From the NCBI GenBank assembly GCA_964414415.1, contig CAYPWJ010000001.1:7007-71006 (forward strand): DNA of 64,000 bases. Direction: 5' to 3'. The position numbers and the translations under genes are program-made. Source of the stretch: an uncultured Thermoplasmatales archaeon. GTDB lineage: Archaea; Thermoplasmatota; E2; UBA202; DSCA01. Positions 12,028 through 64,000 of the stretch are shown here, piece by piece. Position 1 is the stretch's first letter. Each line of letters starts with the position of its first letter. Below the pieces are notes generated by a model. That model did no database searches. It was given only the letters and a program-made list of their open reading frames with translations, and was not told the origin of the DNA.

Positions 12028-12158
12028 TGATCTTTTACGGAATGTACGATAACCTTTATATACCGGGATGGTGTTGTAATAGCATACCACGATAATGATA
12101 GCAAAAAGTTAGCGAAATAGAAAAGAAATATATAAGAAAATATATAAGCTGGGGAGGA

Positions 12159-15100
12159 ATGAATACAATGATGGAAAAAATCGGGAGAATAAAAGGAAAA
12201 GAAGGTGTCTCGGAGATCATCGGCACTGTGCTCTTGCTCGCCATCGCCGTCATCATCTTTTCGTCTTTGATTGTCTATGTGCTCTCAATGGATACCTCGC
12301 CGTCGGCGCCCAGCGTCCACATGGTCGGCTCCATGGATGAAAGCAGCATCGCAACGATAGAGAACAGAGGAGGAAATTCTGTCCCCATCGAGGACCTCAA
12401 GGTAATGATCCGGAAGGGCGACAACCAGAGCCACATCTATAGCGGGGAGGCTCTTTCAGCTATGTTTCATGACACAAACGACAACGGCAGATGGGACGTC
12501 GGTGATTACATCACCGTAAACTGCTCAAAGATATTTTCTGGCGACGTCGCTCGCTGGCAGATATCGGTCGCCGTCATCGACCAGCCCAGCAACGCCATCA
12601 TCATGAGCGGCGTCCTCCAGCAGGGTATCATGCACACCATGCCGCCGGTCGCCCGGTTTACCTACGCCCCCTGGGACCCGAAAACCAAGGAAATTGTCAC
12701 CTTTAACGCCAGCGATTCCTACGACCCTGACGGTGGCTCTCTCCAGTCATACCAGTGGGACTTCGGTGACGGCAACACCGGCAGCGGCATGGTGGTCATG
12801 CATCAATATAATACCTCAGGGAATTACACGATTTCTCTCACCATTACCGACGATGAAGGGCAGACCGCCTCGACGTCCAGTCCGTACGGCGTCCCTGCCG
12901 AAGTCAACGTCACCACTAATCAGAAACCAGTCGCCAACTTCACGTGGACGAACAATACCGGAAAGAATGGCGTCGTGGCATTCACTGACGGCTCCTACGA
13001 CACCGATGGAGAGATTGTTTCTTGGTACTGGAATTTCGGCGATGGAAGCGTCTCCACAGCCCAGAATCCATCCCATTATTACAACCAGAGCGGCACCTAT
13101 ACCGTCACCCTGGCGGTGACCGATGACAACAACGAGACCAATACCACCAGTCTTGATGTAGTGGTTCCAAACCTTGACCCGGAGGCTTTCTTCTCTTACA
13201 GCCCAAGCAATCCTACCACGAAGCATTATGTCTTTTTCGATGGAAGCAACTCGTATGATAGAGATGGCTCCATCCAGAGCTATTCCTGGGATTTGAACGG
13301 CGATGGCGTGTTCGGCGATGCCACCGTGGCAAAACCCTCGACAACCTACGGAAGCACCGGCAACTATACCGTCGGGTTGAAAGTCACCGATGACCTCGGT
13401 GCCACCGACATAGAAACTAAGACTCTTAACGTCAGTTCTCCTATGACCAGCCGAAGCGTGCTGGTTGTAGACAACACCCCCCAGGCGACTGGAGGGAGAG
13501 CCAACTGGGACGGCACCGACAAGATTATTCAGGCGCTTAGCAACCTTGGATTTTCATACTCAACGGGCAAAGCCATTGACAGCTGGCAGTTCGTAGATGG
13601 AACCGAGGCTGGAAAGAACATCACCGCTACATTACTCGACGAATACGACATCGTCATCTGGAGCACAGGCACGTTTCCAGGGGATGGCGGTAGAGCAGCG
13701 GATGACAACAATGACAACACGTGGACCACGTCCATGACTGAGGGCTCCGATGACGAGTCAAATCATGTCTACGAGATTTACCAGCACATGAATCACAATG
13801 GAACGCTCCTTCTCTGTGGCACCTACGCCGTTCGAGACCTCCAAGACTACAGCGGGAATGAGGCAAACCAGGATGAGATATGGCTTGGAAACACCCTGGG
13901 GCTGATAGAAGACACTGGTGGCATCAACGAGGGGTATCACAGCGGCAAAACAGGATACTACGCAACCGATTATTACAACTATCCCTACGATCCTCCTGGT
14001 TCTCCAGGATGGTACTATTCTGGAGAGTTCAGCTACGGCCCCATCCAGGGAAGCGGCGTCATGACAGGGAGAACCGGCACATCCACGGATTCCGACACCT
14101 ACGGCGTCGCGAACGTCGAGATTACGTCGCCTATCGACATGTATGAGCTCAACCCGCAGGGAGGCACGCTCTTCAACTATTCGCTCAACGCCACCGGAGG
14201 AGCCGGCATCGTACTTCAAACAGACTTTGAATCCGGGGCATTTCCCCCAAGCGGCTGGAGTGAACACCGGCTAGAAACTAACAATGGCCCCGGATGGCAA
14301 AAAAACAACCGAGCCGGTGGAGGGCAAAGTGCCTATCACGACCATACTCAACAGGATGATAAAGTCTGCAACGATTGGATAGTAAGTCCACAGTTTACAG
14401 TTCCTCCCGGAGGGGTCTTGGATTTTGAGGAAAAGAATGGGTACATGAACTATTATGATTATCATGGAGTGATGATTTCAACTGGGAGTGGTGATCCAGA
14501 CGATGCAGACTTCACCGAATTACAAGAAATGGATGATGCGACGTTTTGGAATTGGGAAGACCGCAGCATCGATATTAGTTCCTATGCCGGGCAGGATGTT
14601 CATATCGCGTTCCAATATAAAGGCGGAGATGCGGCAATATGGGCAATTGATAACATTGAGGTATCTTCCTCAGCGGATTACATTCGCACTGGAGAATATG
14701 CGATTGATGCCGAGCGTGGCGCCAATCGGTCTGTGGTCACAGGTTTCAACCTGAACTCCGATGCCATCACCAACGAGAGCCGTGAAGCATATCTGCGAAA
14801 CGTCCTCAACTGGATGGCGGAAGGCGTCGGCTACGAGACAGAGGTATATGTGGACAACGACCGATCGACAGAGTGGTACGATGAAACACATCTCCATACC
14901 ATCCAGGAGGGAATAGACGCAGTGAGCTTCGGCGGCACCGTACACGTATATGACGGGGATGCCTACGACGGCGCTGTCATCGATAAGTCCATATCACTCG
15001 TCGGGGAGAACGCGCCAGTGGCACGGAGCAGCGGAGAAGCGGCATTCAAGGTGACTGCAGACTGGGTACAAATCGATGGATTTACGATATACAACAAGGC

Positions 15101-54041: not shown

Positions 54042-55466
54042 ATGATGAACAGGCGGCCATCGCATGTTGATTCCTTTCTTTTCGACCGCGTCGATGGAGC
54101 ATCGCTGCTCTGTCTCGTCGACGGCGAGCACTACCCGCCGGTGACCCGGTGGACGCTCGACGAGCTGGAGCAGGCTGGCGGCAGCATCGCCGGGCTGGTC
54201 TTCATTGGCGGCACCGAAAAAGTGGACAACGCTGTCGAGGAGCTGCAGAGCGAGGAGCAGCGCTACACCATATACATGGGCGGCGAGGACTTCGACGCAA
54301 CGCTGGAGACAGTGGACAGAGCACTGCAGGAGCAGCAGCCGGACCTCGTCGTTGACCTCTCCGACGAGCCGATCGTCGGCTACGACGAGCGCTTCCGTAT
54401 CGCTACCAGGGTGCTCATGCACGACGCGTGCTACGCGGGCGCCGATTTCTGGTTTTCGCCGCCACAGCGCTGTCGGGTGCTGTCGATGCCGAGCCTGGCC
54501 GTCATCGGCACCGGGAAGCGGGTGGGCAAGACGGCGGTCAGCGTGACGATTGCCCGACTGCTCGACGCCGGGGGCTACGACCCGGTCGTGGTGGCGATGG
54601 GCCGCGGCGGTCCCCCGGAGCCGGAGGTCATCCGTCCCGGTGAGCTGGATGTCACCCTTGATTTTTTGCTCGACGTCGCGGAGGGCGGCGGCCATGCCGC
54701 CTCTGACTACTGGGAGGACGCCATCCTGGCTGACGTGCCAACGGTGGGCTGCCGGCGGTGCGGCGGCGGGATGGCGGGCAGCCCGGTGCTGTCGAACGTA
54801 CTCGAGGGCGCCGCGATTGCCGGCGAGATGCCGCAGCGCTTCGCCATCATGGAGGGATCCGGTCCGACGCTGCCGCCGGTGGCGACCGACGCCTCGGTCG
54901 TCGTCGCGGGGGCGATGCAGCCCCTTCGCTATATCACCGGCTTTTTGGGTGAATATCGTCTCCGCCGCGGCGACCTGGCCGTGGTGACCATGTGTGAGGA
55001 GCCGATGGCGTCGGAGGCAAAGGTGCAGGAGGTGTACGACGGCATCCGGGAGATACGCCCCGACATAGAAGTGGCGTTGACGGTCTTCCGGCCTGAGCCT
55101 CATCGCGACATTGAGGGCCGGCGGGTGTTCCTGGCGACGACCGCTCCCCCCATCATGGAGGGCGCGCTGGCCGGCTACCTGGAGGAGACCTACGGCTGCC
55201 AGGTGGTAGCCGTGTCCACCAGTCTGTCCGACAGGGTGCAGCTCCGTCGGGATCTGGCCGAACTGGACGAGGCAGATGTGCTGCTCACCGAGATAAAAGC
55301 CGCTTCGATTGACGTTGCAGCGGCGATGGCACGTGCCAGCGAGTGCGACGTGGTCTTCATGCATAATCGGCCGATTGTCGTGGGGGGAACCGTCGACGCG
55401 CTGGACGAGGCGGCGCTCGACGTCTGCAGCAGGATTTGCAGTGAGCATGGAGGAGTGAAAGCATGA
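54042..55466 (+). CDS. cpgS: Cyclic 2,3-diphosphoglycerate synthetase
   Basis: LVDGEHYPPV, GGTEK, DLSDEP, GTGKRVGKTA, MGRGGP, HAASDYWEDA, RRCGGG, EGSG, EIKAA..D. Confidence 0.92.
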   Translation: MMNRRPSHVDSFLFDRVDGASLLCLVDGEHYPPVTRWTLDELEQAGGSIAGLVFIGGTEKVDNAVEELQSEEQRYTIYMGGEDFDATLETVDRALQEQQPDLVVDLSDEPIVGYDERFRIATRVLMHDACYAGADFWFSPPQRCRVLSMPSLAVIGTGKRVGKTAVSVTIARLLDAGGYDPVVVAMGRGGPPEPEVIRPGELDVTLDFLLDVAEGGGHAASDYWEDAILADVPTVGCRRCGGGMAGSPVLSNVLEGAAIAGEMPQRFAIMEGSGPTLPPVATDASVVVAGAMQPLRYITGFLGEYRLRRGDLAVVTMCEEPMASEAKVQEVYDGIREIRPDIEVALTVFRPEPHRDIEGRRVFLATTAPPIMEGALAGYLEETYGCQVVAVSTSLSDRVQLRRDLAELDEADVLLTEIKAASIDVAAAMARASECDVVFMHNRPIVVGGTVDALDEAALDVCSRICSEHGGVKA

Positions 55467-56341
55467 TGCAGGTACGTAAGGGAACGAAGCGGTATCCGTT
55501 TTCGAAGGGCATCCTGGCGAAGTCTATCGCCCGGACGGGGATAGGACTGGACGAGGTCTACGAGATTGTGCAGGACATCCAGGAGGACCTGCAGCGGCAG
55601 GGACTCGAGGAGGTGAAGACGTCGGAGATAAAACGAATGGTGTGCGAGCAGCTGCTCAGTCGGGAGTATCGGACGGAGGAGCGCCATTACAGGGTGACCC
55701 GGCAGATACAGTATCTGGAGAAACCCATCGTGGTGATGATCGGCGGCGGCACCGGCGTCGGTAAGTCGACCATCGCGGCGGAGCTCGCGCATCGCCTCGG
55801 CATCACGCGCTTCATCGGCTCTGACGGCATCAGGGAGATCATGCGGTACATGGTACCCCGGGATTTCATGCCGGTGCTGCATGAGTCGAGCTTCATGGCC
55901 GGTGAATGGCTGCATAACCCGTTTGTCGAGGAGAACATCGTCTACACGTTTACGCAGCAGGTCAACATGGTCAGCGAGGGCGTCCTCGCGTTCATCCGGC
56001 GGGGCATCAAGGAGGGGCTCCACACAATGCTCAACGGCATCCACCTGGTGCCCGGCTACATCGAGTTCGACAAGGAGCGAGACGACATGTTTTGTTTCCA
56101 CTATGTGCTGCATCTTTCGGACGTCGAGCATCACATCCAGCACATCTACTCGCGCTCGGAGGGCAGCCGACGGGACCCCGACCGCTATGTCGACCGGATA
56201 AGCAACATCAGGGAGATACAGCAGTTCATCACCGAGATGGCCAGGCAGCATGACGTCCCGGTCGTCGAGAACCATGATTTCGACGAGACGCTGAACACCA
56301 TCATGGATGACATCATCACGACGCTGGAGGGGCACCTATGA
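55463..56341 (+). CDS. pgk2: 2-phosphoglycerate kinase
   Basis: ATP-cone PFSKGILA; P-loop GGTGVGKST; D..RE.MR, LH.SS, G.HLVPG; overlaps cpgS stop. Confidence 0.88.
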   Translation: MMQVRKGTKRYPFSKGILAKSIARTGIGLDEVYEIVQDIQEDLQRQGLEEVKTSEIKRMVCEQLLSREYRTEERHYRVTRQIQYLEKPIVVMIGGGTGVGKSTIAAELAHRLGITRFIGSDGIREIMRYMVPRDFMPVLHESSFMAGEWLHNPFVEENIVYTFTQQVNMVSEGVLAFIRRGIKEGLHTMLNGIHLVPGYIEFDKERDDMFCFHYVLHLSDVEHHIQHIYSRSEGSRRDPDRYVDRISNIREIQQFITEMARQHDVPVVENHDFDETLNTIMDDIITTLEGHL

Positions 56342-58270: not shown

Positions 58271-58948
58271 CTACGCCTTGGTGAGACGCTGCCGCTCCCA
58301 CCAGTACACCAGGAAATAGAAGCCGAGCATCGAGATGTTGTACAGGAAGTCCTCCACCGGTATCGTGGTCATCCTGATACCCCAGATGGCCCAGCCGCCG
58401 TAGGTCACGACAGGCGCCGCGGTCAGCAGGTAGTTGAATATCAGGAAGCCGACGAAGCTGAACAGGAGATAGAGCCAGAAATGCATGGAGGCCAGCACGT
58501 CCCGGAAAAATAGGGGAGCAACGACGAAAAACGCGGCTGTCACGACGAGGACGGTGGCGGTATATGACTGCTCATGGTACAGCGCTGCCAGTGCCAGCGC
58601 TGCGACGGCGACGGCTGCATAGAGCACGTGGGGCACCGGCAGCTCCCAATCCGGCAGAAACGCATGTAGCGCCTCGTAGATGAACAGGCAGCTGTAGGGC
58701 ACCACCACGAAGAACAGTATCTCCGCCAGTGGCAGCCCGAGGACCTCGATGCCCGAGGTATACGCATGGGCGAACGCCCAGTCGCCCCGGGCCGTCGCAA
58801 CGACGTCCCAGACAACGTAGGCGGTGCCGACCAGGGCGATGGACAGCCCGACGGCGGGCCATTTACGGTAGTAGCGGATGCGCCGCTCGAACGAAAACAG
58901 GAGCGGGACGGTCAGGATGATCGCGTCGAGCCATAGGTATTGTATCAT
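58271..58948 (-). CDS. crtY: Lycopene beta-cyclase (fused CrtYc/Yd type)
   Basis: Two repeats containing LPLAEILFF and IPVEDFLY; hydrophobic; in operon with crtB and crtI. Confidence 0.85.
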   Translation of the reverse strand: MIQYLWLDAIILTVPLLFSFERRIRYYRKWPAVGLSIALVGTAYVVWDVVATARGDWAFAHAYTSGIEVLGLPLAEILFFVVVPYSCLFIYEALHAFLPDWELPVPHVLYAAVAVAALALAALYHEQSYTATVLVVTAAFFVVAPLFFRDVLASMHFWLYLLFSFVGFLIFNYLLTAAPVVTYGGWAIWGIRMTTIPVEDFLYNISMLGFYFLVYWWERQRLTKA

Positions 58949-58949
58949 G

Positions 58950-59813
58950 CTATCCCGGCTGGCAGGAGGCGGTCTTCAAGGGCTTTGCCAGGACGTTGCG
59001 CAGCACGGTGACGACGATGTAGGGCACCACCGGCTTTACTTTCGTGCGGTACACGATGAAGGGGTCCTGCTCTATCTTGCGTGCAGTCCACTTGTACATC
59101 TCCGAGGCGGTCTTGACGGGGATGAGATACCGCTTCCCGATGAAGCGGAATCCCGCCTCCGCTGACGCCTGCCAGTTGCAGTAGCGCTCTACCTGCTCAC
59201 GGATGAAGGCGGTGAGGCCCTCGGGGTTGCCGCGTGCCTCCTGCTCTTCAAGTGTGCTGAGCCCGTGCCGCTGGAGCATCCGGAGCGGGAAATAGACGCG
59301 GCCAAACCGCAGGTCTTCGTCGATGTCCCGGATGAAGTTGATGTACTGCATCGCCCGCCCGAGCATCCGGGCTGCCGGCAGCGCCTCGTCGGGCAGCCGC
59401 ATGATGCGGGCCATCATCAGCCCGATGACCTCCGCGGAGCCGTGGATGTAATCGAGGAGGTCGTCCAGCGTCTCGTAGCGCTCCGTGTCCAGGTCCATCT
59501 CCATCGATTGGAGGAAAGCCTCCACCCACGCCGGGTCGAAGCCACGCTGTCTCAGCAACGCGGCGAAGCTGTCGACGATGACGTCGCCCGTTGTCTCTCC
59601 CTGAAGCGCCGCCTGGTAGCGCTCCCGGAATGCGTGGAACGCGTCGGGCTGCTGCGGGACGCTGTCGACATAGTTGTCGGCGGTACGGACGAAGGCATAC
59701 AGCCGGAAGACCTCCTCCCGGAGCTGGCGGGGGAAAAACAGGCTGCTGTAGAAGTAGGTGCGGCTACCTGCCTTGAACGTCTCAAAGATGCGTTTATGGA
59801 CCATGGTCATCAC
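58950..59813 (-). CDS. crtB: Phytoene synthase
   Basis: GSRTYF.SS, LYAFVR.AD..VD, M.MDL, GSAEVIG, Q..NFIRDI.ED...GRVYFP. Confidence 0.93.
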   Translation of the reverse strand: MMTMVHKRIFETFKAGSRTYFYSSLFFPRQLREEVFRLYAFVRTADNYVDSVPQQPDAFHAFRERYQAALQGETTGDVIVDSFAALLRQRGFDPAWVEAFLQSMEMDLDTERYETLDDLLDYIHGSAEVIGLMMARIMRLPDEALPAARMLGRAMQYINFIRDIDEDLRFGRVYFPLRMLQRHGLSTLEEQEARGNPEGLTAFIREQVERYCNWQASAEAGFRFIGKRYLIPVKTASEMYKWTARKIEQDPFIVYRTKVKPVVPYIVVTVLRNVLAKPLKTASCQPG

Positions 59814-61275
59814 GTATCAGTCGATGGGCAATCTGCGCCGATATCAGCGTCACCGGCACGCCGACGCCGGGATGGGTGTAATGCCCGGCATAGTAGAGAT
59901 TGTCCACTTTTTTGCTCCGGTGCCGCGGCCGCAGGATGGCGGTCTGCCGCAGCGTATGGGCGAGGCCGAGCGAGGTGCCCTTGTAGGCGTTGAAATAGGA
60001 GGCAAAGTCGTTATGGGCGAAGATGCGCTTCGTGACGACGTGCTCCCTGACGTTGACGCCGATGAGCCCCTCGAAATGACTCATGATTTTGTCGTAGTAC
60101 CGCCGGCGTATCTCCTCCGTGTCCTCAAGCCCCGGCGCGACGAGCACCAGGATGGTGAGGTTTTCGCCACCCTCCGGCGCCATCGACGGGTCGGTGTGGC
60201 TCTGGCAGCTCACGTAGTAGCTCGGGTCGTCCGGCCACCGCGGTCGGGAGCCGAAGACCTGCTCAAAGTAGCTGTCCCAGTCGGGGTTGAGATAGAGGTT
60301 GTGGTGCACCAGCGCGTCGAGCTTCGTGTCCAGTCCCAGGAAGATGAGGTAGGATGCCGGCGCCAGCGTGCGGCGCTCCCAATAGCGGCGCCCGTAGGTG
60401 CGGTAGCGCTCCGGCAGCATGTGCATCTCGCCGTGCCAGTAGTCGGCGGTGTTGACCACGAGGTCGGCGTCGACGGCTCCCTGGCTGGTGGATACGCCGG
60501 TGGCGACGCCGCCGTTCACTTGGATGCGCTTGACGTCGGTGTCGAACTGGAATGAGGCGCCCTGTTCCTGCGCCAGTTTATATACGGCCTGCATGACGCT
60601 GCCGTAGCCACCCATCGGGTACCAGATGCCGAGGTTGAGGTCGCAGTGTGTCAACAGCGAATACATGGCGGGGCTTATGTGCGGGGCGCCGCCGACGAAG
60701 GCAATGCTGTACTCGATGAGCTTCCGGGCTTTGACGCTTGAAAAATAGCGCTTGGTAAAGCGGTCGAGGCTCTGGAAGATGTGGAGCTTGAGGCCCTCCA
60801 CGATGAGCTGCGGGTCCAGGACGTCACGCCAGGACTCGTACTCGCGGTAGATGAAGTCGTCGATGGCGACCTCATATTGATATTTTGACTGCTCAAGGAA
60901 CTCTTGGAGCTTGGCGGCCCCGTTCGGCTCAAGCTCGTTGAAGAGGGCCATGTTCTGGTCGAGGTCGGCATGGACGTCGACGACGTTGCCGTCGCCGAAG
61001 AAGACGCGGTAGGAGGGGTCGAGCCTGACCGTCTCATAGTAGTCGCCCGGTGTCTTGTTGAACTCGGCGAAGAAGCGCTCGAAAGCCTCGAGCATCATGT
61101 ACCAGGAGGGACCCATGTCGAACGTGTAGCCTTTTTCCTCGTATACCATCGCGCGGCCGCCCGGCCGATTGTTTTTCTCGATGACGGTGACGTCGTAGCC
61201 GTCTCTGCCGAGCAGCGCCGCGGCGGCCATGCCGGCGAACCCGGCGCCGACGACCGCCGCGCTATCTGAGGACAT
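59794..61275 (-). CDS. crtI: Phytoene desaturase
   Basis: GAGFAG FAD motif, EKN..PGGR, FDMGPSWY, YP.GG, GLAHTL.QT, HPG.GVP. Confidence 0.92.
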   Translation of the reverse strand: MSSDSAAVVGAGFAGMAAAALLGRDGYDVTVIEKNNRPGGRAMVYEEKGYTFDMGPSWYMMLEAFERFFAEFNKTPGDYYETVRLDPSYRVFFGDGNVVDVHADLDQNMALFNELEPNGAAKLQEFLEQSKYQYEVAIDDFIYREYESWRDVLDPQLIVEGLKLHIFQSLDRFTKRYFSSVKARKLIEYSIAFVGGAPHISPAMYSLLTHCDLNLGIWYPMGGYGSVMQAVYKLAQEQGASFQFDTDVKRIQVNGGVATGVSTSQGAVDADLVVNTADYWHGEMHMLPERYRTYGRRYWERRTLAPASYLIFLGLDTKLDALVHHNLYLNPDWDSYFEQVFGSRPRWPDDPSYYVSCQSHTDPSMAPEGGENLTILVLVAPGLEDTEEIRRRYYDKIMSHFEGLIGVNVREHVVTKRIFAHNDFASYFNAYKGTSLGLAHTLRQTAILRPRHRSKKVDNLYYAGHYTHPGVGVPVTLISAQIAHRLIRDDHGP

Positions 61276-61378
61276 TGAACAATGAAATAACTGCCTGTTT
61301 ATGAAGCTATCGAAGCCGTCAAAACGAGAAAACTACTTCTAACAGCAGGCGCTATCGTAGTGCCCATACGAGGACGAC

Positions 61379-61846
61379 ATGATATCCATTGCGGCCATCG
61401 TTTTCTATTTTTTTTATCGTCGTCGGTGTCTTCATAGCCATGGAGGGCGTCGCCTGGCTGCTCCACCGGTACGTGATGCACGGCTTCGGCTGGTACGTCC
61501 ACGAGGACCATCACCGCTACACCACGGGCCGCTTCGAAAAAAAAAAAACGACCTCTTCGACCTCACGTTCAGCGTGCTCTCCTTTCTCCTCATCATGACT
61601 GGGTTTTTCAACGAGATATGGGTGATGCTGGCCGCCGGCATCGGCATCATGCTCTACGGCATCGGCTACTTCATTGTCCACGACGTCTTTTTCCACCGGC
61701 GCATCAAGATAAAATATCGACCGAAGAGCGCCTACCTGAAACGTGTACTCCACGCACACGCGGTACACCACCAGCAGAGCACCGCCCACGACGGCGTCTC
61801 CTTCGGCTTTCTCTACGCCGGCGGGCAATACGCCGTGAAGGACTAA
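61379..61846 (+). pseudogene. crtZ: Beta-carotene hydroxylase interrupted by two compensating homopolymer frameshifts
   Basis: [21 protein letters not shown] lies in a shifted frame between T8 (61408-61415) and A12 (61537-61548); NDLF, HDVFFHRR, HAVHH and SFGFL lie in the start frame. Confidence 0.8.
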
Positions 61847-62069
61847 AGCGCTTCTCTTTCTCGGTGGTGCCCATCAGTCAGCTGGTCATTAACTGGTCAT
61901 TAACAAGAGATATACCCCCGGGTGGGCGATTATCAGGCTTTTCTTGGCCGCCACTGTAACGCCAGCATTAGTTTCTTACCAGCTTTTTGGTGTTTCCGCG
62001 GTTTGCCGTCGCTGAAATGGTTCCCACCCATTGTGACAGGGATACCTTTAAGTATCAGGCTGGAAATAG

Positions 62070-63203
62070 GTGGCGATGAGCCGGACAGCATGTGTCGCTT
62101 TATTGCTCATGGCCGTATTCTGCCTGGGTGCCACCGCCCCGGGTGTCATCGACCATGATCCCTCTTCATCCAGCCTGGCTGACGCTCCGGCGAGCGCAGG
62201 CAGTGATGCATCGCAGGAGATACACATCGCGCTCTACGACTGCGGGTGGAACAACCGCTACTTCGACGGCATCTTCAACTACAGCTGGACGCAGGGCAAC
62301 GACTCCTATCGATTCGACGTGACCGTGGTTGATGCAGACGACGTGCGCGGTGACGGCGACGTTTCCTTCAACGCCAAGCGCTTCGACGTGTTGCTCATCG
62401 GGGCCAGCGCCTCCGCCTATCTGGTTGACGGCGTCGACGATGCTTGGCGGAGCGCCGTGCGTTCTTTTGTCGCACAGGGCGGCGGTTATCTTGGCATCTG
62501 CGGCGGCGCCAACGCGGCCAGCATGGGGTTCGAGGAGCCGCAGAGCCTGTTTCAGCGCCGCGTCAACCAGGGTGTGCTCCGCATCGCCGACGTCTGGATC
62601 AACGACGACGTGGTCGGTGAATGGCAGTACCTGCTCAAGTTTGGATTCGATGCCTTCTCCAGGGACTACGAGAACGGCAGCTTTCCCTACTATGTCAGCG
62701 TCGACACCAGGGTTGCTGATGCCCATCCTGTCTTCGCCGGCTACGACGGCGATACCCGCTACATCACCTACGCCGGCGGCCCCGGTATGTATCCCGCCGG
62801 TCAGGGCGACGACATGCACGGCCGGGTGTCGACCCTGCTGCGTTACAACGAGGAGCCGATGGAGACCAAGCCGCTGCATTACTGGCGTCCGTCGCTGGAT
62901 GGCTGGACGATATGGAGGAATGTCACCACTGACATCAAGGGAACCGCTGCCGCCGTCGCGACGACCTACGGCGCGGGGAACGTGGCGCTCTATGGGCCGC
63001 ATCCCGAGCATCGCGTCGTGGTCAACGGCACCGTCCGGGAGTACCTCGGCCATGGCATCCCGAACGTTGCCGGTCCGGTGGAGCGGTACGTGTTCAACTA
63101 TTTCGGTGAGATGCTGGGCGAGGAATACAACTGGTGGATCGTGCGGCGGAGCGCTGCCTGGGCTGCCGGGCTGCCAGCGCCGGAGCTGCCGCCCGTTGGA
63201 TGA
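62070..63203 (+). CDS. Secreted class I glutamine-amidotransferase-like (BPL_N-like) protein
   Basis: Signal peptide; FV..GGGYLGICGGA nucleophile elbow; G.G.V.L.GPHPE. Confidence 0.7.
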   Translation: MAMSRTACVALLLMAVFCLGATAPGVIDHDPSSSSLADAPASAGSDASQEIHIALYDCGWNNRYFDGIFNYSWTQGNDSYRFDVTVVDADDVRGDGDVSFNAKRFDVLLIGASASAYLVDGVDDAWRSAVRSFVAQGGGYLGICGGANAASMGFEEPQSLFQRRVNQGVLRIADVWINDDVVGEWQYLLKFGFDAFSRDYENGSFPYYVSVDTRVADAHPVFAGYDGDTRYITYAGGPGMYPAGQGDDMHGRVSTLLRYNEEPMETKPLHYWRPSLDGWTIWRNVTTDIKGTAAAVATTYGAGNVALYGPHPEHRVVVNGTVREYLGHGIPNVAGPVERYVFNYFGEMLGEEYNWWIVRRSAAWAAGLPAPELPPVG

Positions 63204-63209
63204 ATATCA

Positions 63210-63977
63210 TCAGGGCTGCAGGGTGCCGAAGAATATCTGCCAGGCCAGCGCCGACTTGGCAACGAGGCTGAGCACGATGTACATCCGCTCGCCGTAGAGG
63301 TAGTCCTTCCACTTGCCGACCTGCTTGTACTGCAGCGCCATGTTGACCGCAAAGAGGTTGAAGAAGACAGCTATTGAAACGTATATACCGATGACGAAGT
63401 CGGGTATCTGCCCGCCGGACTGCACGCTGGCACCGACAAGGGATATGGCGATGACAATCCAGGGGACGATGCCGGCGATGCAGCCGATGATGTAGCTCGT
63501 CCAATTGGTCCGCTCCGTCGTCTGGTTGTGCAGCTCCATCATGAGACCGCAGAGGTTCATGACGGCCGTTAGCGTGAACAGGGCGATCAGGGTTCCCAGG
63601 TCAAGTATGTTGGTCAGCATGGCGATGATGACGATCATGAGCGACGCGCTTATCGAGTACTCGTACCACCGTGCGGGATTGATGTGCTTTTTGAGCTTGC
63701 GTTTGTACCAGTTGTAGCCGATGGTGGCCAGCGTGAAATGCGCGATGGCCGATATGAGGAGGAACAGCGCCACCAGCGGCGCCAGCTGGATTGACCCGAG
63801 CGTGGCGTTCTGGGCGACGAGTCCCTGCCCCTCGATAAATTGTGGGTACGAGTAGGTGACGTTCCAGGTGTTGTCGTTGCTCAGCCAGAACATCAATCCG
63901 GACTGTATAAGGTGCAGGACGCCCATGACGGCGTTGAACCGCCGGAGCTTCAAAAACGTGGATTCATTTGCTTCCAT
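63210..63977 (-). CDS. heR: Heliorhodopsin
   Basis: RRFN..MG.LH..Q, AH, NPARWYEYSISAS.M, GE..YIVLSLVAKS.LAW (retinal-binding Lys); 7 TM. Confidence 0.95.
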   Translation of the reverse strand: MEANESTFLKLRRFNAVMGVLHLIQSGLMFWLSNDNTWNVTYSYPQFIEGQGLVAQNATLGSIQLAPLVALFLLISAIAHFTLATIGYNWYKRKLKKHINPARWYEYSISASLMIVIIAMLTNILDLGTLIALFTLTAVMNLCGLMMELHNQTTERTNWTSYIIGCIAGIVPWIVIAISLVGASVQSGGQIPDFVIGIYVSIAVFFNLFAVNMALQYKQVGKWKDYLYGERMYIVLSLVAKSALAWQIFFGTLQP

Positions 63978-64000
63978 GCAATCCCCTCTTCCTTAATAAA

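Follow-up and report, generated by a model that had tools for sequence, protein, structure and literature searches.

Heliorhodopsins (HeRs) are widespread, but what they do in nature has been established for a few partner enzymes only. To our knowledge, the members studied to date act by binding enzymes or transporters that are encoded next to them. Where carotenoid genes adjoin the HeR gene, the adjacency invites the idea of a self-made chromophore or antenna. Here, this idea is weighed for one archaeal locus, a HeR gene close to carotenoid (crt) genes at the end of a 64,000-nucleotide stretch of DNA from an uncultured Thermoplasmatales archaeon (hereafter the window; positions 7007-71006 of the 204,934-bp contig C1). 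The genome amounts to 1.617 Mb and is 92.9% complete, so that absences from it are no proof. The reading favored here, to which we assign a probability of roughly 0.55, is drawn by analogy with a bacterial HeR-photolyase pair: the HeR would serve as light sensor or helper of the photolyase gene row that it terminates, the carotenoids would act as a parallel photoprotectant, and the retinal would come from outside.

The closest described systems combine the same kinds of genes. In 2021, HeRs with a zinc-ribbon extension (Znf-HeRs) of Thermoplasmatales were described as flanked by genes for lycopene cyclase, phytoene desaturase, phytoene synthase, and DNA photolyase (PMC8612252). In 2022, HeR was reported together with crtZ, crtB, a crtI/D-type desaturase, and photolyase in Thermoprofundales Subgroup E, where it was read as a light sensor for photoprotection (PMC9585477). 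Photolyase is given as one of ten recurrent groups of HeR neighbors (PMC11109279). The HeR of Trichococcus flocculiformis (TfHeR) is reported to bind the class 2 cyclobutane pyrimidine dimer (CPD) photolyase of its own operon (TfPHR; Kd 21.7 µM) and to raise its repair activity, with E97, R162, and K227 as the interaction residues (PMC9769723). Linkage of HeR, crt, and photolyase genes in Thermoplasmatota has, hence, already been published (PMC8612252; PMC9585477), and the antenna idea is contained in a 2025 preprint (bioRxiv 10.1101/2025.11.27.691015). Distinct here are a plain HeR, a UbiA-type prenyltransferase gene between photolyase and HeR, a gene for a BPL_N-like protein, another order, and a broken crtZ. 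The main value added by the present analysis lies in negative evidence on pigment supply and in a possibly switchable crtZ; attention, thus, moves from pigment supply to the pairing of HeR with photolyase (and with UbiA) in archaea.

The heliorhodopsin and its photolyase row

The HeR gene (window 63210..63977, minus strand) encodes a protein of 255 aa that passed the cut-offs of both family models by a wide margin (PF18761, 328.9 bits, cut-off 26.7; NF038020, 352.6 bits, cut-off 100). Its nearest relative of solved structure is TaHeR (6IS6; 326 bits over residues 3-255). E106 in helix 3 (the counter-ion) and K241 in the last helix (the Schiff-base lysine) are invariant in an alignment of 45 HeRs, and the inverted membrane topology and the retinal binding of HeRs are predicted for this protein as well. 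An N-terminal Zn-ribbon is absent; the PF18761 match starts at residue 11 of 255, and only five more codons are open upstream. No type 1 rhodopsin was found in the genome (a PF01036 match on contig C4 reached 14.8 bits, which is below the cut-off).

As the sequence-only reading from which this analysis started had stated, only 23 bp of the window remain upstream of the HeR start codon. The contig itself continues further, and these 23 bp (63978..64000, minus strand) are the first part, up to the window end, of a 71-bp spacer. Beyond it (coordinates of L003, that is, contig C1:70000-88000), HeR turned out to be the last gene of a co-directional row. The row consists of a DUF523/DUF1722 gene (L003 3366-4340, minus strand; PF04463, 111.9 bits, and PF08349, 49.1 bits), a class II CPD photolyase gene (L003 2030-3373, minus strand; PF00875, 122.3 bits; TIGR00591, 638.4 bits, cut-off 550), a gene for a MenA-like UbiA prenyltransferase of 307 aa (P0001; L003 1056-1979, minus strand; PF01040, 80.1 bits), which ends 71 bp before HeR, and HeR itself. 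The stop of the DUF523/DUF1722 gene overlaps the start of the photolyase gene, and the annotated start of UbiA overlaps the end of the photolyase gene. HeR and a class II photolyase are, thus, encoded co-directionally in one gene row. The same order is kept in three loci of congeners (L004, L005, and L006; 70-87% protein identity), and in three more loci (L090-L092) UbiA and HeR are accompanied by the photolyase at least; L090 and L006 belong to one genome, as judged from their identical UbiA. The row is conserved across five species of the genera g1 and g3.

An A/T-rich promoter-like box (AAATTTAGAAA..GTTAAATAAAA) lies 20-45 nt before the HeR ATG in this genome and in L004, L005, and L006. 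It is situated in the spacer between UbiA and HeR, mostly just outside the window end, and because HeR has this conserved box of its own, "operon" may be too strong a term for the row. The crtI and BPL_N genes are also each preceded by a conserved A/T box of their own. A motif putatively shared by the upstream regions of HeR and crt (AACYGCCT..TTTATKAAG) was discarded, as the regular expression applied has a single match in the genome (the crt site) and as the likeness on the HeR side is absent in L004-L006.

In analogy to TfHeR-TfPHR, the HeR most likely binds and stimulates its class II photolyase. The whole island would then be a sunlight-protection island made up of two adjacent modules. 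In the first, the row DUF523/1722-photolyase-UbiA-HeR, HeR would act as visible-light sensor or helper. The second, crtI-crtB-crtY, would convert the cell's own geranylgeranyl diphosphate (GGPP) to a cyclic C40 carotene, probably β-carotene, which would serve as a membrane photoprotectant; the hydroxylation step toward zeaxanthin would be off in the assembled genome, as slippage took the A-run in crtZ from A7 to A12. Among the roles that the sequence-only reading had offered for the crt genes (supply of a chromophore precursor, supply of a xanthophyll antenna or ligand, or a photoprotective output regulated by HeR), the photoprotective output fits best, given the position of HeR behind a class II photolyase row.

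The UbiA homologues, among them Methanoculleus proteins of 45-48% identity, are annotated only as prenyltransferase or 1,4-dihydroxy-2-naphthoate octaprenyltransferase. A function of UbiA as lycopene elongase (LyeJ/CrtEb) was considered and rejected: no tblastn match (E≤1e-3) to the LyeJ of two haloarchaeal crtD-lyeJ-cruF clusters was obtained, and LyeJ is remote in the UbiA tree, on branches of 5-10 substitutions per site. For CruF, no PF04240 match was found in the genome. In the tree (45 rows), the seven UbiA copies with HeR and photolyase in their context group together (SH-aLRT 81), and another, separate clade with eight members (support 100) includes five genes located beside or near crt genes (L017, L110-L112, and L115). 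By this tree, the wider UbiA family has a carotenoid-linked branch, and the UbiA of the HeR row sits on a different one. The crt-linked clade belongs to another Thermoplasmatota family, and one of its loci (L115) has the order crtB-UbiA-crtY; this clade is a candidate for a carotenoid-modifying prenyltransferase distinct from LyeJ.

Two further observations concern the row and its surroundings. Between the gene for an MptA-type GTP cyclohydrolase and the DUF523/DUF1722 gene lies a tRNA-Lys(CTT) gene (L003 4547-4620); a 227-aa ORF (open reading frame) in the same gap, "unk227", is an Arg/Pro/Gly-rich frame overlapping the tRNA gene and was treated as spurious. The top match of the photolyase search (P0126) was a protein of 4593 aa with 16 photolyase-like stretches, possibly a giant protein built of photolyase repeats, or else a mis-prediction.

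Heliorhodopsin loci with and without carotenoid genes

The ORF list and family scans recovered crtI-crtB-crtY, the one gene between them and HeR, and HeR itself exactly where the sequence-only reading had placed them. All three crt genes lie on the minus strand. crtY (58271..58948; 225 aa) encodes a fused heterodimer-type (c/d) lycopene cyclase (PF18916, 77 bits, E=1.7e-21, in two stretches; TIGR03462, 77.6 bits, cut-off 39.4), crtB (58950..59813; 287 aa) a phytoene synthase (PF00494, 200.6 bits), and crtI (59794..61275; 493 aa) a phytoene desaturase (TIGR02734, 444.7 bits). As crtI overlaps the start of crtB by 20 bp, and as the three genes overlap or abut throughout, they are regarded as one unit. 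CrtI also passed, at 644 bits versus a cut-off of 640, the model NF058655 ("CrtID", bifunctional phytoene desaturase/3,4-desaturase); a full-text literature search for this NCBIfam name returned nothing relevant. Copies of crtB with 80% identity are present in L005 and L006, and the substrate could be made by two polyprenyl synthases that the genome encodes at other places.

The HeR-crt synteny survey that the sequence-only reading had proposed was carried out on the 80 top-ranking HeR loci of species-representative genomes by tblastn with the window proteins; about one third of these loci are shorter than 8 kb, and misses there mean little. crt genes were present in the fetched flanks of seven loci (L004 in part, L005, L006, L010, L017, L018, and L025), all from Thermoplasmatota. 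The linkage is, thus, not unique to this genome, and it is more than chance. A class II-like photolyase gene was found near HeR in 6 of the 80 loci (plus three weak class I-like matches), DUF523/DUF1722 in 10 (including Chloroflexota and Thermoleophilia), UbiA in 6, and crtZ in 2.

Within the order, HeR was found in eight of 39 genomes, namely, in all five of genus g1 and in G006, G012, and G016. Lycopene cyclase was found in five, all of genus g1, and not in the three other HeR-containing genomes. crtZ was found in one genome of the order, the present one, and in none of the four congeners; elsewhere in the phylum, it was present in 25 of the 54 genomes of family f4 and overall in 32 of 401 sampled. 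Phytoene synthase was found in four of the five species of the genus, of which G000, G001, and G004 encode it on the HeR contig, a few kb away. No phytoene synthase was found in the fifth, G003, which at 98% is the most complete genome of the genus. In its locus (L004), a GNAT-like fragment (~12090-12540) replaces crtI, crtB, and the first half of crtY, and HeR (87% identical and of full length), UbiA, photolyase, and DUF523 are retained, which argues that the crt genes are dispensable for HeR here. The fragment has every appearance of a clean deletion scar inside the island. In place of crtZ, a mere 190 bp are found in L005 and an unrelated ORF in L006.

Taken at face value, these gene contents outline a stable HeR-photolyase-UbiA core and a carotenoid module that is being trimmed, crtZ first and then, in one species, all of it. 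The fact that HeR persists without crtZ, without the cyclase, or without phytoene synthase argues that the crt cluster is no dedicated supplier of either a chromophore or an antenna for HeR.

The broken crtZ and the alternatives

crtZ (61389..61846, plus strand), predicted to encode a β-carotene 3-hydroxylase, is indeed divergent from crtI, as the sequence-only reading had it, but it is not an intact single gene. As read directly from the sequence (TTC-G-A12-C-GAC), a run of 12 A (61537..61548, plus strand) splits its frame. The N-terminal part, ~50 residues from the TTG at 61389, carries HRYVMH and HEDHH; the C-terminal part, 99 residues in the -1 frame with the stop at 61846, carries HDVFFH and HAHAVHH. 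In separate alignments, the two pieces together cover intact homologues of 153 aa over their full length, and the four His motifs expected of a di-iron membrane hydroxylase all lie at the aligned positions. The frame would be restored by A10, by A13, or by a -1 shift. As it stands, a 155-aa ORF reaches 23.7 bits with PF04116 (cut-off 31), and the gene caller of the protein collection retained a 90-aa ORF alone (P0276). The nearest intact homologues (85% and 82% identity), which one source labels β-carotene 3-hydroxylase, also read GR(L/F)EKND. About 40 nt past the crtZ stop lies a perfect tandem direct repeat (61883-61905; two copies of an 11-nt unit containing GGTCATTAAC); the 10-mer GGTCATTAAC occurs nowhere else in the genome, and the repeat may serve as a binding site or may, like the A-run, have arisen by slippage.

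The run site was compared in the loci of 26 relatives, one of which is masked by N and 25 of which are informative (two pairs of rows look like duplicate records). It reads A7 in 21 and A5 in 4 of the 25, where it encodes E-K-N-D, always within a single ORF of 153-183 aa. An ancestral A7 appears to have grown by five bases to A12, and the 1.617-Mb genome contains no longer A/T homopolymer. At the level of the assembly, the frameshift holds: Logan contigs of the sequencing runs X1 and X2 span A12 at equal length and with 0 gaps (records 8 and 14). The contigs of X3 leave 61327-61681 uncovered and those of X4 give no cover over 61327-61899, so that the A-run is spanned by X1 and X2 only. Homopolymers of another kind, long poly-C/poly-G runs (up to 27 C) at or near the ends of contigs C10, C27, C16, C32, and C42, look like sequencing artefacts rather than biology.

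How crtZ might have come to this state, or might be read in spite of it, was considered in several ways. For the 92 nt that follow the run, the fold is less stable than that of shuffled sequences (z=+1.66; 191 of 200 shuffles were at least as stable); a programmed -1 ribosomal frameshift of the classical kind was rejected as unlikely, because no stimulatory RNA structure was found downstream of the run. Transcriptional or replicational slippage on A12 is plausible by analogy, as runs of nine A are described as slippage-prone in many bacteria already (PMC1088944). Because crtZ is unique in the order, a recent lateral origin was considered, too. It was discarded, as the GC content at third codon positions (GC3) equals that of the neighbors and as intact homologues of 82-85% identity exist; long residence and repeated loss fit better.

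Several observations weigh against the favored reading of HeR as partner of the photolyase row. With its own box, HeR may be transcribed apart from the photolyase. Four of the five species of the genus retain the crt cluster beside or near HeR, which one would hardly expect of two entirely unrelated modules. X1 and X2 are possibly the runs from which the assembly was made, hence the agreement of their contigs is no independent confirmation of A12. GC3 of crtZ in the correct frames is 0.816 and 0.82 on either side of the run, versus 0.79-0.87 in the neighboring genes. In a set of 110 intact homologues, 63 columns reach a conservation of at least 95%; crtZ agrees with 59 of them, and the intact homologues themselves have 0-4 mismatches there. 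Two of the four mismatches of crtZ are the lysines encoded by the run, the third is an R for K common to the closest relatives, and the fourth is a unique Gly-to-Asp exchange four residues past the run. As crtZ is otherwise well preserved, the break should be recent or bypassed (e.g., by slippage), that is, the gene would be either freshly broken or still expressed. Finally, Y162, C166, G169, F206, N207, and A210 of the HeR correspond to Y164, C168, G171, F203, N204, and A207 of TaHeR. By these alignments, the protein has every residue of the carotenoid-binding fenestration proposed in the preprint, namely, aromatic residues at 162 and 206, small ones at 166 and 210, and Gly at 169 (bioRxiv 10.1101/2025.11.27.691015).

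The last two points bear directly on the possibility that a carotenoid made by the crt genes (zeaxanthin if crtZ is in frame, otherwise β-carotene) docks in the HeR fenestration and passes light to the retinal. Besides a complete fenestration and a well-conserved crtZ, whose A12 could be read via transcriptional slippage in view of the bacterial A9 precedents (PMC1088944), the adjacency of crt and HeR genes in 7 of 80 loci speaks for such an antenna. However, the reading frame of crtZ is broken, no crtZ was found in the other four species of the genus, one congener has an intact HeR without phytoene synthase, and the three further HeR genomes of the order are without the cyclase. The rhodopsin antennas described to date are given as hydroxylated or keto carotenoids (PMC12137139; bioRxiv 10.1101/2025.11.27.691015); neither kind was traced to the organism's own genes, with crtZ out of frame and no ketolase among the ORFs scanned, and the cluster as assembled would end at a non-hydroxylated carotene. 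In addition, the HeR case of the preprint is one of docking, for which exogenous xanthophylls are proposed, and HeRs are stated to carry Asn at a position that is Gly in the antenna-binding type 1 rhodopsins (bioRxiv 10.1101/2025.11.27.691015). The xanthophyll-antenna proposal of the sequence-only reading is, thus, backed by the fenestration residues and opposed by the state of crtZ, and we consider antenna supply unlikely.

It is also doubtful, and to a marginally higher degree, whether HeR senses light in order to switch on the transcription of crt and repair genes through some partner. Such a signaling role was proposed for Thermoprofundales Subgroup E (PMC9585477), and the separate conserved A/T boxes of HeR, crtI, and the BPL_N gene would permit separate control. 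On the other hand, the scan of the ORFs in the HeR neighborhood turned up no gene for a transcription factor, histidine kinase, or transducer, the HeR is without the Zn-ribbon extension that suggested signaling in other Thermoplasmatales, and the putative upstream motif of HeR and crt is not conserved in relatives. A photoprotective output, thus, survives as the best fit, and its regulation by HeR as conjecture.

Supply of the chromophore itself would require that β-carotene is cleaved to retinal by an unrecognized enzyme or by non-enzymatic oxidation. A HeR with Schiff-base lysine and counter-ion needs retinal, crtI-crtB-crtY together with a GGPP synthase make up a complete route to a β-ring carotene, and crtB is kept in four of the five species of the genus. 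However, the absence of blh/brp from the window, which the sequence-only reading had noted, holds for the flanks and the whole genome as well: neither Blh/Brp (PF15461 and TIGR03753) nor RPE65 (PF03055) had a match in the 92.9%-complete genome. Across the 39 genomes of the order, PF15461 never passed its cut-off (nine genomes of another family had matches of at most 19 bits), but control genomes were likewise without an over-cut-off match to PF15461 or TIGR03753, so that the sensitivity of these models for archaeal Brp is uncertain. PF03055 matched none of five relatives, and a Pfam scan of the ORFs of three further HeR-crt loci revealed neither type of oxygenase. Hence, of a retinal-synthesis cluster (crtEIBY plus blh/brp), the oxygenase part was not found. 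Moreover, HeR is retained without crtB or without the cyclase, and the UbiA beside it is a prenyltransferase and no oxygenase. In sum, nothing positive speaks for the supply of a chromophore precursor as put forward by the sequence-only reading, and we regard it as improbable. As no carotene-cleaving enzyme was found, the retinal of HeR is probably imported from outside.

Least probable is that A12 constitutes a working on/off switch, operated by DNA slippage (A12 to A13 or A10) or by RNA-polymerase slippage, with zeaxanthin occupying the conserved HeR fenestration. If true, β-carotene hydroxylation would be on in part of the population or of the transcripts, and the locus would be the first case of a HeR whose antenna or ligand supply is encoded in the genome and can be switched, as well as an archaeal homopolymer contingency locus. 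With crtZ broken or absent, with one congener devoid of carotenoid synthesis, and with no cleavage enzyme found, the comparative record of this lineage speaks against a dedicated supply, and HeR stays with its class II photolyase row all the same.

Two other parts of the window deserve mention. The gene between crtZ and HeR (62070..63203, plus strand), convergent with the latter, encodes a BPL_N-like (class I glutamine-amidotransferase-like) protein of 377 aa with a signal-peptide-like N-terminus (PF09825, 35 bits). Its atlas neighbors are Thermoplasmatota BPL_N hypothetical proteins (score 0.95), no relative was found in the PDB, and copies of 79-81% identity occupy the equivalent position in the congener loci L004-L006. 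Farther away, region 54042-56341 contains a 2-phosphoglycerate-kinase-like gene (NF003259, 297.6 bits, below the cut-off of 343) that is translationally coupled to a gene for a 474-aa protein without family match, which presumably resembles the cyclic 2,3-diphosphoglycerate synthetase of thermophilic methanogens.

Comparison with described systems

The haloarchaeal crtD-lyeJ-cruF cluster for bacterioruberin likewise has a UbiA-family enzyme among its pigment genes, and CrtI of the present locus is 42% identical to its desaturase. The UbiA of the HeR row, in contrast, has no tblastn match to LyeJ, and CruF was not found in the genome.

Closer are the neighborhoods of Znf-HeRs, in which HeR is described with the same kinds of carotenoid and photolyase genes as here (PMC8612252). 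Three of the surveyed loci (L010, L017, and L025) are of this published type and contain genes for UvdE, PNPOx, SOUL, and DUF2834 among others. Their HeRs are 309-311 aa long, with the family match starting at residues 68-70, whereas the present HeR has 255 aa and no Zn-ribbon; its locus is also without adjacent UvdE, PNPOx, SOUL, and DUF2834 genes, and the gene order differs. Beside the HeR gene, these three loci encode a protein of 212-226 aa (L025 9823-10503, L010 8452-9090, and L017 7576-8220) that has a signal-peptide-like start, belongs to no Pfam family, shows 53-84% mutual identity, and is unrelated to the BPL_N-like protein.

In the clusters of Thermoprofundales Subgroup E, too, a Thermoplasmatota HeR is reported in the company of the same kinds of genes (PMC9585477). 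By comparison, crtZ is frameshifted here and is the only one found in the order (family f4, in which crtZ is common, falls in a different order of the class), no CruF was found in the genome, and no CruA, CrtU, or UvdE was found among the ORFs scanned.

On the protein level, xanthorhodopsin, Gloeobacter rhodopsin, Kin4B8, and HeimdallR share with HeRs, as far as described, a lateral fenestration by the retinal ring with opposing aromatic residues. They are, however, type 1 rhodopsins, that is, members of another family with the opposite membrane topology and with Gly in place of Asn, and for them carotenoid binding and energy transfer are reported as demonstrated, compared with docking only for HeRs. 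TaHeR from Thermoplasmatales archaeon SG8-52-1 (6IS6, 7U55, and 7CLJ) is identical to the present HeR in the counter-ion Glu, the Schiff-base Lys, and the fenestration residues; it differs in the loop ahead of the "IPDFV" segment, which is five residues longer here.

For the function proposed here, TfHeR-TfPHR is the closest parallel. This bacterial pair was, according to its description, established by isothermal titration calorimetry and repair assays (PMC9769723), whereas the present one is archaeal, is known from its genes, and has UbiA intervening; in both, HeR and a class II CPD photolyase are encoded co-directionally.

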